IMG/VR virus record: IMGVR_UViG_3300028832_000110
Span: 1 to 64,000 of that record
DNA length: 64,000 bases
Strand: one strand, 5' to 3'
Source: a virus
Lineage: Duplodnaviria > Caudoviricetes
Shown one piece after another: positions 1,625 through 18,598 of the stretch; within the stretch, counting starts at the first letter, position 1, and every line of letters begins with the position of its first letter. The translations under genes were made by a program, and so were the position numbers. The notes below the pieces were generated by a model. That model was given only the letters and a program-made list of their open reading frames with translations, did no database searches and was not told the origin of the DNA.

Positions 1625-1836
1625 GACAACGTAATGTTAAGTTGCACAGGCTCGCTTTCCCACGTCAACGATGGTAGCGAGAGACCTAATCCCTCCAGAT
1701 GCGCAAGAGCAACCTGACCCTTTGCATCGTAATCGCCTTGCCACTGCTGCTTGGTGGTGTCGCGGGTTGGCTTCTGCTTATAAGCGCGATAACCGCCAGT
1801 AATCGTAGCTACGACCCAAATCAGATAATTATTCAT
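1603..1836 (-). CDS. Hypothetical protein
   Basis: 77-aa ORF packed in the operon. Confidence 0.55.
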   Translation of the reverse strand: MNNYLIWVVATITGGYRAYKQKPTRDTTKQQWQGDYDAKGQVALAHLEGLGLSLPSLTWESEPVQLNITLSWESETK

Positions 1837-1866
1837 AAGTCCTTTAGTTATTAATTAATTGTTATG

Positions 1867-2259
1867 CTATAAATCTTCGTCTTCATCAAAGGGGTTGACA
1901 CTGCGATCAACGGGAATATACCTTATTCCGTTCTCGCCAATGCAACTGCGTTTATCCAGAGCTTCCAACTCTTCTTTCAGCCTTTCCTCAAAGGAGTCCT
2001 CGCCGTCATCGCAGGCAACAAGCCAGTCTACTCGTTGTGTGTAGATGAATGTTTTCTCCAATGCGTATATGGCTTCCTCAAACCTTCTCAATGCAGATTC
2101 AGAGTATTCAGTACCAAAGCGTGACTCTGGATGTTGTCTCATATACCAATCCCATAGCCTTTCGGGAATGGGCTTACCGCTTTTCTGAATCTTTTCCTTG
2201 ATACTCTCAATGACATACTCAATCTGATTCTGCCAATACTCAAATGTGCCTCCACTCAT
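1867..2259 (-). CDS. Hypothetical phage protein
   Basis: 130-aa ORF (MSGGTFEY...RVDWLVACDDGE) with A-rich upstream region. Confidence 0.75.
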   Translation of the reverse strand: MSGGTFEYWQNQIEYVIESIKEKIQKSGKPIPERLWDWYMRQHPESRFGTEYSESALRRFEEAIYALEKTFIYTQRVDWLVACDDGEDSFEERLKEELEALDKRSCIGENGIRYIPVDRSVNPFDEDEDL

Positions 2260-3606: not shown

Positions 3607-3748
3607 AATCGCGGGCTTGCTCTTTCGTCGGGAAATCCTTCACGAAATCACCGAATGTAACACCGTTGCCTGCGTAATGGCATTGCCACACTCCCCATTG
3701 TCGGCGATGCGGAGCGTAGTAATACTGACCATCCTTAGTCATCTTCAT
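3539..3748 (-). CDS. Hypothetical protein
   Basis: 69-aa ORF overlapping its neighbours. Confidence 0.6.
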   Translation of the reverse strand: MKMTKDGQYYYAPHRRQWGVWQCHYAGNGVTFGDFVKDFPTKEQARDFVYEKNGWKKKENNEAKIQEKK

Positions 3749-5298: not shown

Positions 5299-6111
5299 CT
5301 ACTCTCCAGAGTTGGGGGGGGTATTTCCTTCTACAACGAAGTTGTCATCAACACGATTGCCAGGAGCCGTGCGGATGGTAAAAGCAACGTCATCGCCAGT
5401 CTTAGGCGTGAAGTTATGACCGTGAGACTTATCGGCATCAACACGCATGAAGTATTGAAGCATCTTGTCACTGAGGTAATACTTTTCGTCAACGTTCTTT
5501 TCCAACACGTCTTTCAACCGCTTTTCCAGAGGAAACGGCCTTGGGAAGTTGAACACTGGCTCTGGCTCACCGTCTTTCTTCAGAATGGAGATCATGAATA
5601 TGCGCTCTCGGTTCTGAGGAACACCGAACTCCTTTGTGTTTAGCACCTTTGAGAAATTGCTATATCCCCATCGGCTCAATCTGAGCTGCCAACGGATAAA
5701 GTGCTTACGGTGCTTATCACTCAGCAAGCCCTTGACATTCTCGAATAAGATGTATCGCGGACGCTTGATTTCAATGGCACGGCTACATTCCCATAGTAAT
5801 GAACTCCTTGTGCCACTACCTTCCTCACCACTTTTACCAAGTCCTGCCGCCGAAAAGTCTTGGCATGGTGGACTCATTGTAAATAGGTCAAAATCAGGCA
5901 CTTCATTCCAGTTTATCTTCGATATATCGCCATAGTTTTTGTCGGCATATTCGGGGAAAACTGCGTTGTGGGCTTGTATGGCGAAGGTATCAATTTCCGA
6001 CCATCCAACGAGTATCGACGGCACACCTGCGCGGATAAGCCCCATCATCTGAGAATCGTAGCCAGAAAAGGAAGTGAAGACTTTCAAGGGGTTGTCTTTC
6101 GTATATTTCAT
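5299..6111 (-). CDS. DNA (cytosine-5) methyltransferase, N-terminal catalytic subunit (motifs I-VIII)
   Basis: FSG (I), SPPCQDFS (IV), ENVKGL (VI), QNRERIF (VIII); motifs IX-X absent. Confidence 0.9.
   Translation of the reverse strand: MKYTKDNPLKVFTSFSGYDSQMMGLIRAGVPSILVGWSEIDTFAIQAHNAVFPEYADKNYGDISKINWNEVPDFDLFTMSPPCQDFSAAGLGKSGEEGSGTRSSLLWECSRAIEIKRPRYILFENVKGLLSDKHRKHFIRWQLRLSRWGYSNFSKVLNTKEFGVPQNRERIFMISILKKDGEPEPVFNFPRPFPLEKRLKDVLEKNVDEKYYLSDKMLQYFMRVDADKSHGHNFTPKTGDDVAFTIRTAPGNRVDDNFVVEGNTPPNSGE
5314..5321 (-). repeat. C8 homopolymer (G8 on +) just before the stop of the MTase N-subunit
   Basis: gttggggggggta; one extra C opens a 62-aa TRD-like extension ending at TGA 5126-5128. Confidence 0.75.
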
Positions 6112-9797: not shown

Positions 9798-9812
9798 AAT
9801 CTATAATCTTAG

Positions 9813-10122
9813 TGGAGGTAAGCGGAGTCGAACCGCTGTCTTACTGACATCTTATAGAAACTTGTTACGTGCGTTGGGGCTGACCAGACATCATATCGGG
9901 CGAGCGTTCCACCACCTTGTTTGTTGTCTAACAAGGAAATCCATAAGCCGTGACCTTTATGTTCCTTCGCAAGTCACACGCGAGTGCGCTTACGCTGCTG
10001 CACGCAGAGAAGCGCAGGGAGTCATATTGACAACCTTTGCATTTATTTGTTTTGCTATTTCAAGGCATAACTGCCTGCACGATTTCTTACCTTCCGTCAG
10101 CAATCAAAACCAGAATACCCCC
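9813..10122 (-). ncRNA. ssrA: tmRNA, one-piece; tag (A)AKVVNMTPCASLRAAA*
   Basis: Acceptor GGGGGTA/TACCTCC-A with G3:U70; 5' GGGGGTATTCTGGTTTTGA; T-arm AGCGG-TTCGACT-CCGCT; tag frame 10040-9990 after ATAAAT, ending in Ala-Ala-Ala-TAA. Confidence 0.92.
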
Positions 10123-14002: not shown

Positions 14003-14015
14003 ATCCTAATTGTAT

Positions 14016-14180
14016 TTATTCAATTATCTGTTTCAGCAATTCCCTACACTTCTCAAACAACGCCACTTTTCCGTGACACCAATTATCGGTACAGGTATTG
14101 TAACCTGCCACCCATGCCTCTTCAACGGTGGCATTCGGATGCTTTTTCAGCCATTCCTGCATCTGCTCTTTGTAACTCAT
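14016..14180 (-). CDS. Hypothetical protein
   Basis: 54-aa ORF starting MSYKEQ. Confidence 0.55.
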   Translation of the reverse strand: MSYKEQMQEWLKKHPNATVEEAWVAGYNTCTDNWCHGKVALFEKCRELLKQIIE

Positions 14181-14192
14181 AGATTCAACTGA

Positions 14193-14227
14193 TAAAAAAA
14201 CCTCCCTACCCATCGCGGGCAAGGAGG
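14193..14227 (-). terminator. Intrinsic terminator after the tRNA/ncRNA cluster
   Basis: CCTCCTTGCCC-GCGAT-GGGTAGGGAGG followed by T7 on the minus strand. Confidence 0.7.
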
Positions 14228-14301
14228 CAAACAAACTACTTAAAAACTAATCTACTAAAACAAATCTTATATCATTATGACTCACAACATTCAGAAAAAC
14301 C

Positions 14302-14501
14302 CGCTACCGAAATAACCAACCGCCCCACCGCCGTATTGCGATGGGGCGCATAACAATAATTTATTCCAAGCCGTCAAAAAAGAGTTTCAAAGGAAAAGCC
14401 TCAACAACGTCTCGAAAGTCGAGTAGGATAACAAGCACCTCGGCTTTCACCGATTGCACGTCTATCTCCGTTGCAAGGCTCTGTCACGTTCTACGGTAGC
14501 G
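14302..14501 (-). ncRNA. Putative structured RNA E1 (200 nt), following tRNA-Ser
   Basis: Ends pair (CGCTACCG/CGGTAGCG); internal hairpins include TCGGT-GAAA-GCCGA and CGCCCCATCGC/GCGGTGGGGCG; no ORF in the track. Confidence 0.5.
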
Positions 14502-14520
14502 AAACATAACAACGTGCTTG

Positions 14521-14605
14521 CGGAGAGTGAAGGATTTGAACCTCCGATACGTTTCCGTATGCCTCGTTAGCAGTGAGGTGCTTTCGACCACTCAGCCAAC
14601 TCTCC
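14521..14605 (-). tRNA. tRNA-Ser(GCT)
   Basis: Cloverleaf, anticodon loop CT-GCT-AA, long variable arm, GGTTCAAATCC. Confidence 0.95.
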
Positions 14606-14615
14606 AGAATAATAG

Positions 14616-14688
14616 TTGCGGAAGCAGGACTCGAACCTGCGACCTTTAGGATATGAGCCTAACGCGCTACCAACTGCGCCATTCCGCG
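14616..14688 (-). tRNA. tRNA-Met(CAT) with initiator-like C1:A72 mismatch
   Basis: TTAGG-CTCATAT-CCTAA anticodon arm; GGTTCGAGTCC. Confidence 0.93.
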
Positions 14689-14758
14689 ATTTGCCAGTCC
14701 TCTCATACTGGCTTTGACGTTTATTCTTTTTAGTGTCAACGTCTAATACACTGTGTGC

Positions 14759-14957
14759 GTCGGCGACCACCACTGCAAGGGTATGCCGATACCCCTAATG
14801 TCTCGTAGCCTCGTAAGAAAGGAGCGACCTCTGTCCTCGTAACCTTCCCAAATCGGGGGAACCGGGCAAATTCCAATAGGGAAAGCCTATAAACAACAAA
14901 GGCCGTACATACGCTGCTGTGGCAAACTGATAGCGGACATACTGAGTAGCCGCCGAC
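14759..14957 (-). ncRNA. Putative structured RNA E2 (199 nt), following tRNA-Gln
   Basis: 12-bp closing stem GTCGGCGGCTAC/GTGGTCGCCGAC with G:U pairs on the minus strand; several internal hairpins. Confidence 0.55.
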
Positions 14958-14989
14958 ATCTTCGCTTATGGAAAGTCAGAAGAATTATG

Positions 14990-15060
14990 CAAGCCTATGA
15001 GGACTCGAACCCCAACTAACAGAACCAAAACCTGTTGTGCTACCATTACACCATAAGCCT
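14990..15060 (-). tRNA. tRNA-Gln(TTG)
   Basis: ACAGG-TTTTGGT-TCTGT anticodon arm; GGTTCGAGTCC. Confidence 0.9.
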
Positions 15061-15102
15061 ATGAATGTGCAGTGATCATGCGCTACCACGTTCTTTCGCT
15101 CC

Positions 15103-15313
15103 GGCATTCTACATTTCAGCCACCCCCAAGTTCTTAGGTGGTTTATAATGCAATATTTTCGATTCGTATGAGAAAAAAGGTACTAAAGCCATCGCTTATA
15201 TTCGGACATACCGAACTACACACCATTATGATACCCATAATTTATATATATGGCATGAAAAGAAAAATCATAGAAAGCCACCGACCTTCTCAGGCAGGTG
15301 GAGTAGAATTGCC
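15103..15313 (-). ncRNA. Putative structured RNA E3 (211 nt), following tRNA-Trp
   Basis: Closing stem GGCA(A)TTCTAC/GTAGAATGCC; at least four internal hairpins. Confidence 0.5.
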
Positions 15314-15340
15314 TATGTTCACAAAAAATCCTTATGTGGT

Positions 15341-15416
15341 TGGCGCGAACTGAAGGAATCGAACCCCCGACATTCGGTTTTGGAGACCGATGTTCTACCA
15401 ACTGAACTAAGTCCGC
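15341..15416 (-). tRNA. tRNA-Trp(CCA) with encoded 3' CCA
   Basis: TCGGT-CTCCAAA-ACCGA anticodon arm; GGTTCGATTCC. Confidence 0.95.
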
Positions 15417-15800
15417 ATAGAACCCGCGCCACAACTTAATGAGGCGCAGGCTTATATAGAGTATGCCTATTCCAAAGAACAGGCAATAAGTTCTTTCAAA
15501 CCATATTAGCCTTTCATTACGTTTTTATGCCTCAGCCCTCTGTGACCTCCGCTTTAGAAGAGCAACTTACCTCTCCAACCCATTTAGGCTATTCACTTCT
15601 TAGGCTATGCCGTCAGTTTTCGCCAGACGTATGGGCTACGTCAGTGGAACACCTGAGTAAGTCCTTCTTCTCATTCCCTTAGTTGGGATCAGCAGCAGAA
15701 ACACGTTCTGTCTGAGTATTCCGAAACGGGTAACACGTACCTCATGTCTTGCAGGATAACCCTGCATGGCAAACCACCGTTGCCAGATATAGCGTAAATG

Positions 15801-16319: not shown

Positions 16320-17075
16320 ATGGGTTCGCAATTAGTACAGATTAAGGGAAAAGCAGATGAAGTTCCGAGGGAATCTTCATTGATGCGTTTGCTCCAGTTA
16401 AAGGAGGTGTACTTGGATCGTCATCCCAGAATGACAACCAAGGACTTTGAAAAAGCGTGTGGTGTTTCCAATGGCTACTTCAACACCAGAGTCAAGGGCG
16501 AGAAAAAGCCGATGGAAATGCGGAATGTCAGCCACAAACTATTAAAGTCTATGGCTGAAAATCTCAATGACCCTACGATTAACTGGCAGTGGGTAGAGGA
16601 TGGCATAGGCGAAATGTTTTTCTCTGAGGAAGACGTTGAAGCCATTGCAATAGCCAAAGACCCAAGCCGGGGAGTGCCATACTACGACGTGGATTTCTTG
16701 GGCGGCTTCGATGAAATGTGGAATGACCAGACAACAACGCCTACATACTACATCAACTTGCAGCCGTATAATAAGAAAGGTAATCTATGGTGTAACATTA
16801 CCGGCGATTCCATGTCACCGAGAATCAACAGCGGCGACAAAATCTGCTTGCAGCCTTTGGAAAGAGGCGTTGAGGACATCGTGTATGGTGAAATCTACGG
16901 CATCATTACAACTGGAGGTCTCAGAACTATAAAGTGGGTTGTGCGCTCAGAGAATGAGAATTGCATCCGCTTAGTTCCAGAGAACAAAGAACCTCGCTAC
17001 GGCGACTATCAGGACTTTAGAATTGAAGATGTATTCAAGGTATTTAAAGTATTAGGAGCTGTGCGCACTTTCTGA
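16320..17075 (+). CDS. CI/LexA-like repressor (HTH plus S24 peptidase)
   Basis: FEKACGVSNGYF HTH; ITGDSMSP (catalytic Ser) and RTIKW (catalytic Lys). Confidence 0.9.
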   Translation: MGSQLVQIKGKADEVPRESSLMRLLQLKEVYLDRHPRMTTKDFEKACGVSNGYFNTRVKGEKKPMEMRNVSHKLLKSMAENLNDPTINWQWVEDGIGEMFFSEEDVEAIAIAKDPSRGVPYYDVDFLGGFDEMWNDQTTTPTYYINLQPYNKKGNLWCNITGDSMSPRINSGDKICLQPLERGVEDIVYGEIYGIITTGGLRTIKWVVRSENENCIRLVPENKEPRYGDYQDFRIEDVFKVFKVLGAVRTF

Positions 17076-17383: not shown

Positions 17384-18598
17384 ATGGACTCTGAGAAAAA
17401 AAGATGTTTTGGCGCAAAGACAAAATCACCGAATGTTCGCGCCATCTATGACCGCCAGAACAAAACCGTAATTAGCAGGTCAAAGGGCGGTAAGTTGAAG
17501 CGGGATAACAATATCCTCGCTCCAGTAAGCATTGAAGTGTACTATGATAGGCAGAGGCTCTACCTCCCTACTGGCATTAAGATAACGCCTAACCAATGGA
17601 ACGAGCGCGACAGCCTTGTTATCAGGCATCAAAACTCAATATCGCTGAACAATATCATTCTCCAGATCAAGACCAACGTACTGGACTATGCGCATGACTG
17701 CGTTAAGGCAGGAATCAGTTTTAGCATAGAAGGATTGAAGGATAGGCTCAACAAGAATGAGCAGGCAAGGAATGGCAGTTTCATTGATTTCTTCTATGAG
17801 AGGCTGATGAATAAGCCCATATCCCCAGGAACCAGAAAAGGCTACATGACAGTGTATAATGCCTTGGTGGAATGGGGAAAGATAAAGAAATTCTCTGATG
17901 TGACGTTGCAGAATGTTATCCTATGGGATGAAGTCGCTCACTCCAAGGCCGTAAAGGCTGACTTCACCGAAAACCTCCACAAACGCCTCAGAGCCATTAT
18001 CAATGACGCGGTGAAATTCGGATATGTAGCCGCTAACCCCTATGACGAATTCCATTACAAGCGCGACATGAGCATCAAGCACGATTTCCTCACAGCCGAC
18101 GAACTTGATAGGTTCTGCGCCGTAAAGCTATTGGATAAGGCATTGGTAAGGGCAAGGGATTTGTTTATTTTCCAGTCATATACGGGCATGAGTTACTGCG
18201 ATGCCATGCAGTTCGACCTCGCTCTCTGCAACAGAGACAACGGCAAAATCCGCTACACATCAAAGCGCACGAAGACTGGAGAGACGTTTTTGATTACGCT
18301 GCTGAAACCTGCGTTGGCGGTTCTGGAACGCAATGGCATGGAAGTGCCGCGTATCGACGAGCATATATACAATAGGTCGTTAAAGACTATCTGCCAACTC
18401 GCGGAAATACCAAAATCCCTATCCAGTCATTGCGGGAGAGTCACTTGGGCTTCTACGATAGCATTGGGGCATCAAGTACCGCTGAAGGTGTTGCAGGTTA
18501 CTATGGGGCATTCATCGGTACGCCAGACCGAACTATATGCCAAACTCCAACAAATCCACGTTGATGACTGCCTCGACGAACTTGATGACGCACTATAA
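17384..18598 (+). CDS. int: Tyrosine recombinase / integrase
   Basis: Arm-binding N-terminus (YLPTGIKITPNQW); RDLFIFQSYTG, HCGR, MGH, catalytic Tyr in TELYAK. Confidence 0.93.
   Translation: MDSEKKRCFGAKTKSPNVRAIYDRQNKTVISRSKGGKLKRDNNILAPVSIEVYYDRQRLYLPTGIKITPNQWNERDSLVIRHQNSISLNNIILQIKTNVLDYAHDCVKAGISFSIEGLKDRLNKNEQARNGSFIDFFYERLMNKPISPGTRKGYMTVYNALVEWGKIKKFSDVTLQNVILWDEVAHSKAVKADFTENLHKRLRAIINDAVKFGYVAANPYDEFHYKRDMSIKHDFLTADELDRFCAVKLLDKALVRARDLFIFQSYTGMSYCDAMQFDLALCNRDNGKIRYTSKRTKTGETFLITLLKPALAVLERNGMEVPRIDEHIYNRSLKTICQLAEIPKSLSSHCGRVTWASTIALGHQVPLKVLQVTMGHSSVRQTELYAKLQQIHVDDCLDELDDAL

Follow-up and report, generated by a model that had tools for sequence, protein, structure and literature searches.

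Three families of structured RNA among the tRNA genes of a rumen phage, exchanged like cassettes between close relatives

Stable small RNAs are encoded inside the transfer RNA (tRNA) clusters of phage T4 (species 1 and 2, rnaC/rnaD) and phage T5 (RNA1/RNA2), and we know of no explanation, since those examples, for structured RNAs that travel with phage tRNA genes. GOLLD and ROOL, RNAs of ~580-800 nucleotides (nt), often lie beside tRNAs in phages and prophages, ROOL coming from rumen samples, and the c4 RNA of P1/P7 and the CI RNA of P4 are tRNA-shaped immunity RNAs released by RNase P. Here we describe a tRNA array on the minus strand of the IMG/VR virus record IMGVR_UViG_3300028832_000110, at positions 14302-15416 of a 64,000-nt stretch that we call the window and that forms the first 64 kilobases (kb) of one 107-kb virus contig (CheckV completeness 99%). 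Its four tRNA genes stand together with structured RNAs of three unrelated families, named A, B and C. The whole is probably a mosaic of small-RNA genes arrayed as cassettes, placed in the early region of a temperate phage close to its immunity genes, and its RNAs probably mature in connection with the tRNAs.

The array resembles T4 and T5 in carrying non-tRNA structured RNA genes among phage tRNAs, the T4 and T5 RNAs being stable and presumed to be cut from common precursors. However, there is no sequence similarity: a blastn search (word size 11) of 14200-15600 against 50,697 GenBank phage records returned tRNA genes only. The array also differs in lying in a temperate phage beside the immunity region, and in having three unrelated families that are shuffled among close relatives. 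With GOLLD and ROOL it shares phage-borne structured RNAs adjoining tRNA genes and a rumen origin (the DNA and RNA sequencing runs that hold the array stretch come from cattle and sheep gut samples), but A, B and C are 120-200 nt long, and the array matches no family of Rfam, where we presume both GOLLD and ROOL to be present. In fact, Rfam 15 at the gathering score gave tRNA and transfer-messenger RNA (tmRNA) matches only over the window and 13 related loci, and at E<=10 nothing relevant on the array or on the single members tried, a strong one of family B and one of family A. A full-text literature search retrieved no account of such RNAs in Bacteroidota or rumen phages, and in the T4 SegB paper the stable RNAs of T4 go unmentioned. 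Families A, B and C are thus three new structured-RNA families, absent from Rfam. On the minus strand the array reads as follows:

15341-15416, minus strand: tRNA-Trp (CCA), by ARAGORN, with an Rfam tRNA match of 68.3 bits
15063-15226, minus strand: family B RNA, a cloverleaf-like four-helix fold with its terminal helix P1 at 15221-15215/15073-15067, from model R1 and covariation
14989-15060, minus strand: tRNA-Gln (UUG), by ARAGORN and Rfam
14759-14957, minus strand: family A RNA (element E2 of the first-pass annotation), a long helix between the 5' and 3' parts with internal loops and a variable apical part, from model R2, covariation and RNA contigs
14615-14688, minus strand: tRNA-Met (CAU), by ARAGORN and Rfam
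14520-14605, minus strand: tRNA-Ser (GCU), by ARAGORN and Rfam
14394-14519, minus strand: family C RNA, made up of a conserved leader and, behind it, a three-way-junction domain (14481-14394) with a U-rich tract at its end; the 5' two-thirds of element E1

ARAGORN and Rfam agree on the four tRNAs in the order given by the first-pass annotation, which had been made from the sequence alone. By eye, tRNA-Met has a C1-A72 mismatch atop its acceptor stem, like bacterial initiator tRNAs. The same annotation had drawn between the tRNAs three equivalent, end-paired units of about 200 nt, E3, E2 and E1, without obvious common primary sequence or a convincing open reading frame (ORF). Their three terminal inverted repeats are present in the sequence, and the lack of common primary sequence was confirmed. 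Comparison with relatives (44 loci, numbered with an L below, collected via the adjacent resolvase) upheld the borders of E2 and redrew the other two, since E3 and E1 as drawn each combine two things, a hairpin of terminator-like or regulatory type and a separate RNA.

The borders of E2 (14957-14759), alone among the three elements, were confirmed comparatively. Model R2, a covariance model from four lineages other than that of the window, has its sole match in the window at 14962-14754 (31.9 bits, E 4e-6). The spacers of five lineages, when read, share one design, with complementary end words of 9-10 nt and two conserved inner segments; RNAalifold pairs the first ~45 nt with the last ~50 nt in a long interrupted helix, and the middle varies in sequence and length, so that the element measures 158-200 nt. 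In the model-based alignment of 10 sequences, 91.4% of cells were paired, versus 32-58% when the partners were slid by 1-3 columns. Fifteen pairs changed on both sides, and on four of five measures none of 500 shuffles reached the observed value; the closing helix itself shows exchanges of C-G to U-A and of C-G to G-C. ACAGCA is a word of the window's E2 alone and is not kept across the family.

Family B (~120-165 nt) is the conserved RNA of the Trp-Gln spacer. It consists, in order, of a terminal helix of 7 base pairs (bp), a 3-bp hairpin with an invariant loop, a 7-bp helix that opens into a conserved single-stranded segment (YUUACAWUUAC, without the CAGCA core) and a variable insert, and a 5-bp hairpin with a conserved 6-nt loop. 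Model R1, a covariance model built without window sequences, has its sole match in the window and in the whole 107-kb genome at 15226-15063 (42.3 bits, E 5e-10), with P1 six bases from tRNA-Gln. Across 12 sequences, 93.9% of cells were paired (34-51% when slid), 13 pairs changed on both sides, and none of 500 shuffles reached the observed value on any measure. Despite the outline, neither ARAGORN nor the Rfam tRNA model matches family B, and its loops are not D- or T-loops (helices of 7, 3, 7 and 5 bp). Exact-motif scans of IMG/VR added a few further members in tRNA arrays, and found families A and C in this phage clade only. Weak R1 matches in L012, L046 and L051, which have no tRNAs nearby, were set aside. 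E3 as first drawn (15313-15103) is therefore not the conserved unit: the first 115 nt of the spacer are a terminator-like module, to which E3 adds two-thirds of family B, and the stem that closes E3 is missing from homologues of E3's 5' part.

The folds of A and B brought to mind Y RNAs, whose bacterial YrlA form is marked by a GNCGAAN0-1G stem motif and a tRNA-like T-arm (Chen et al. 2014, PMC4201824). Family A has the Y-RNA outline as it is seen in YrlA and YrlB, a conserved basal helix from both ends under a variable upper part; family B has a tRNA-like outline with its 7-bp terminal helix; and bacterial Y RNAs are tRNA mimics and possible RNase P substrates (PMC4201824). A partner Ro60 (Rsr) could be encoded by host or phage, and our control search detected TROVE in Bacteroides thetaiotaomicron, which shows that Ro60 can occur in hosts of this phylum. 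The phage itself, however, gave no match to TROVE (PF05731) or DUF2828 (PF11443) in its 107-kb, 99%-complete genome. No Rfam Y RNA or YrlA match fell on the array or on an A or B member, the consensus folds of A and B contain no T-loop-like hairpin or canonical T-arm, and the YrlA motif was absent from six of six family A and nine of ten family B members. In 151 sampled genomes of the host order of a related prophage, a sample that says nothing on absence, no family A match was found with R2 and a single R1 match had an E value of 0.009, which is chance level, so no A or B homologue was recognized. We regard a Y-RNA-like role as very unlikely.

Family C is ~125 nt long, its leader lying directly after tRNA-Ser; homologues occur directly after tRNA-Ser or tRNA-Met in L009, L031 and L033. 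All four homologues, compared by single-sequence folds as a MAFFT alignment failed to line up the helices, fold singly into one junction type, and the inner closing stem has four different sequences. It is the least secure of the three families, because only four distinct members were found. The 8-bp terminal stem that had closed E1 as one end-paired unit finds no 3' strand to pair with in the three other sequences homologous to the 5' domain of E1, so that E1 is a composite of family C, a U-rich linker and a separate hairpin. This hairpin is one of four further minus-strand elements of the array and its borders:

15499-15669, minus strand: structured leader 'U', between the HTH_17 gene and the array
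15257-15301, minus strand: terminator-like hairpin with a 5-bp outer stem (15301-15297/15282-15278) and a U-rich tail, a terminator-scan match; the 5' part of E3
14321-14348, minus strand: backbone hairpin with the invariant loop AAUMCG; the 3' hairpin of E1
14200-14228, minus strand: intrinsic-terminator-like hairpin with T7, from the terminator scan, ~20 nt before the ATG of a small ORF

The hairpin 14348-14321 was present in 12 distinct relatives regardless of array content, with covariation at six of its ten pairs and many G-U pairs on the minus strand. It is unique in the 107-kb genome, where its loop word occurs twice more, stemless, in coding sequence. The leader 'U', ~170 nt and non-coding, is kept in at least eight relatives, 13 of its 35 predicted pairs covary, and it has no Rfam match; because terminator-like hairpins follow it, a putative role in antitermination or attenuation is conceivable from its context.

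The spacers thus encode conserved structured RNAs and neither junk nor proteins: the folds covary, and no conserved ORF was found, the longest sense ATG ORFs of A and B members having 13-55 amino acids and being inconsistent among members. This bears on the view that the spacers are functionless decayed tRNA genes or recombination scars, which could be derived from the highly mosaic locus with its short common blocks, from the degenerate tRNAs in relatives and from the D-arm-like word carried by family B. Decay would not account for helices that are maintained in A, B and C by compensatory changes, no tRNA-model match falls on A or B even at E<=10, and RNA libraries hold contigs confined to E2 (see below). 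Decay is thereby already disfavoured, and we regard it as very unlikely. Folding energy was not used in this argument. The three elements do each fold below their own dinucleotide shuffles (z = -2.9, -2.4 and -4.4), but these values are not unusual beside twenty 200-nt coding windows of the same strand (mean z -0.75, standard deviation 1.5, minimum -3.75), and because they lie inside that spread the shuffle check carries no weight. A difference between the strands does count in favour of an array of small-RNA genes, folding being asymmetric, with z of -2.4 versus -0.5 for E2 and of -3.0 versus -0.8 for family C.

RNA evidence came from contigs assembled from four metatranscriptome runs of four studies; such contigs show neither strand, level nor true ends, and neither gaps in contig cover (for example at 14006-14207, or over E2 in run X15) nor uneven depth was taken as silence or level. 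In three studies, short contigs are confined to E2 (14771-14958, 14805-14945, 14757-14834 and 14760-14941). One E2 contig has the start of an Illumina adapter right after 14958, a weak hint, compatible with RNA fragments that end at 14957, where the closing helix begins. Family B is covered by one contig (15070-15251), and family C together with tRNA-Ser by the contigs 14366-14588 and 14418-14589, with a further contig at 14314-14496; tRNA-Ser and family C are joined there, with no proof of a common transcript or of cleavage. In three runs, each from its own study, contigs cover the HTH_17 gene and the leader 'U' and stop at 15508-15512. We take these contigs as presence in RNA libraries, together with a weak hint on ends.

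The first-pass annotation had proposed that the tRNAs serve as processing punctuation. All strong family B members sit in tRNA arrays, and only 0-6 nt separate the 3' border of the model match from a tRNA in the window (Gln), in L009, in L031/L053 and in L067 (Ser); the L008 copy of family B begins immediately behind tRNA-Gln. Family A stops 4 nt short of tRNA-Met in L005 and L006, and family C always starts at a tRNA 3' end. This makes the proposal plausible, but some 5' ends may be transcription starts and not products of tRNA 3' trimming, since a -10-like box lies just upstream of many closing helices (one was flagged, at 15256-15228, the others seen by eye). In the Trp-Gln spacer, an A+T-rich box lies downstream of the hairpin and U-run of 15301-15257. 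By eye, a hairpin and U-run of this type, with different stems, follow tRNAs in L027, L002, L008 and L006. A recurrent terminator-like hairpin with variable stems and a common loop word (UUGNGAAAGU-like) was seen in arrays, in the window at 15257-15301 and in spacers of L027, L002, L008, L009, L033 and L036. The terminator proposed behind E1 is real as a motif (the hairpin and T7 of 14228-14200), its counterparts in relatives, hairpins with other stem sequences at the matching position, being recognized by eye.

Such elements would also fit spacers that act in cis only, as terminators, promoters and processing or insulating helices, with no function as free RNA. Terminator-like hairpins with U-runs stand at 15301-15257, after family C and at 14228-14200, the -10-like boxes lie just upstream of the closing helices, and family C, which ends in a G+C-rich stem and then U's, could be an elaborate terminator. 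However, A and B keep a multi-helix architecture and long invariant single-stranded segments, beyond the needs of a terminator or spacer, the E2-confined contigs occur in RNA libraries of three studies, and members are placed differently relative to different tRNAs. We consider a purely cis-acting role doubtful.

Under the favoured reading of an array of small-RNA genes, each RNA would most likely arise in a short unit that it shares with an adjacent tRNA. tRNA-processing enzymes would set one of its ends, either RNase P at the 5' end of an abutting tRNA or 3' trimming behind a preceding one, and the other end would come from a promoter or from a terminator-like hairpin. Where RNase P cuts at a tRNA 5' end, it would free A or B carrying a short extension beyond the closing helix. 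This helix may protect the ends such that the RNAs persist as stable species. A, B and C might then be trans-acting accessory RNAs that act on the host, for instance by binding proteins or enzymes, alongside the phage tRNAs. As possible roles, the first-pass annotation had put forward decoys for defence nucleases, protein sponges and antisense regulators.

The array lies among the following genes of the phage:

17384-18598, plus strand: integrase, pointing away from the tRNA array
16320-17075, plus strand: repressor with a Peptidase_S24 domain, pointing away from the tRNA array
15959-15801, minus strand: HTH_17 protein of 52 amino acids, upstream of the conserved leader
14180-14016, minus strand: small conserved ORF (ATG at 14180) without Pfam or PHROG match
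9812-10122, minus strand: tmRNA with its own tag (Rfam, 76.7 bits), inside the replication operon

On the minus strand, the order is HTH_17 gene, non-coding leader, tRNA array, small ORF, RuvC-like resolvase, exonuclease, RecT, HNH endonuclease, tmRNA, replication initiator and DnaB. From the repressor and integrase on one side and the recombination and replication genes on the other, it follows that the array heads the early operon of a temperate phage, beside the immunity region. A tmRNA is likewise present in the relatives L008 and L027. In L002, positions 299-372 on the minus strand match the Bacteroidetes FopS small-RNA family above its gathering score (59.9 bits), which fits a Bacteroidota host.

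Two relatives, L007 and L017, have the entire array at 96-99% identity, and L028 matches E1 at 99%. In the remaining relatives, whose resolvases are 77-87% identical, both the tRNA set (from among Trp, Gln, Met, Ser, Lys and Ile) and the mix of A, B and C differ, with arrays such as Trp-Met-Gln, an odd tRNA then Ser, Met-Ser, Ser-Met, Lys-Ser, Ile-Met, or a lone Ser, Met or Lys. Their spacers have just short blocks in common. Such differing arrays and short blocks make the locus a mosaic hot spot between two conserved borders, of which the upstream one is the leader (~15669-15499) and the downstream one comprises the invariant-loop hairpin 14348-14321, an A+T-rich block and the terminator-like hairpin 14228-14200. 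Among the tRNAs of relatives, L035 has a 109-nt tRNA-model match with an insertion in the anticodon region (1821-1929, plus strand), L009 a tRNA with an 8-nt anticodon loop for which ARAGORN gives 'gcac' (3608-3682, plus strand), and L010 a weak, degenerate tRNA-Ser-like copy (5300-5384, plus strand).

The setting recalls P1/P7 c4 and P4 CI, in that small structured RNAs lie in the immunity region of a temperate phage, here flanked by the repressor and early promoter on one side and, on the other, by a conserved terminator ahead of the recombination and replication genes; family B has, moreover, a cloverleaf-like fold with a 7-bp terminal helix. Immunity-type antisense RNAs of this kind would pair within the same early transcript and stop the downstream lytic genes. 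The array, however, shows no homology to c4 or CI and has no Rfam match in a library that we presume to hold the C4 antisense RNA family. Crude duplex scans, in which six B and five A members were each run against the locus they come from, produced long gapped duplexes but no target that recurred, so that no conserved complementarity was recognized among these 11 members. Close relatives lack one or more of the families, and such dispensability is unexpected for a core immunity function. An antisense role in immunity seems unlikely to us.

The patchy, shuffled distribution of the families among near-identical phages suggests, by resemblance, accessory cargo for interaction with the host. Several observations nevertheless weigh against an array of small-RNA genes with tRNA-linked maturation. 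In the window, E2 lies 70 nt from tRNA-Met, therefore RNase P cannot directly set its 3' end there. The window's family B copy is divergent (42 bits, versus 83-130 in other full-length members) and has no excess folding energy (z = -0.06 for the conserved RNA of the Trp-Gln spacer), and its contig begins ~30 nt upstream of P1, which does not place the 5' end at that helix. Family C has just four distinct sequences. The RNA evidence consists of assembled contigs with no strand or mapped ends, and cover of B and C is thin. Finally, the families were found in this rumen phage clade only.

A more specific proposal, which we hold as a tentative possibility, is that A, B and C are trans-acting phage RNAs moving with the tRNA genes as interchangeable cassettes, that family B is a tRNA mimic which would bind or distract tRNA-directed enzymes of the host or tRNA-cutting defence nucleases, and that the array is an RNA-only module for counter-defence or host takeover. 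The 7-bp terminal and 5-bp helices of family B would then approximate an acceptor/T minihelix on which RNase P might act. The current view of phage tRNA genes is that they are tools against host tRNA depletion and tRNA-cutting defences, and, if the mimic proposal were true, the array would be under arms-race selection. The array supplies candidate families for Rfam, and the natural presence and absence variants among near-identical phages, together with lysogens, would permit direct comparison. It thereby becomes testable whether the RNAs simply ride along with tRNA processing or play an active part, and whether phages exchange RNA-only accessory modules in the way they exchange protein anti-defence genes.

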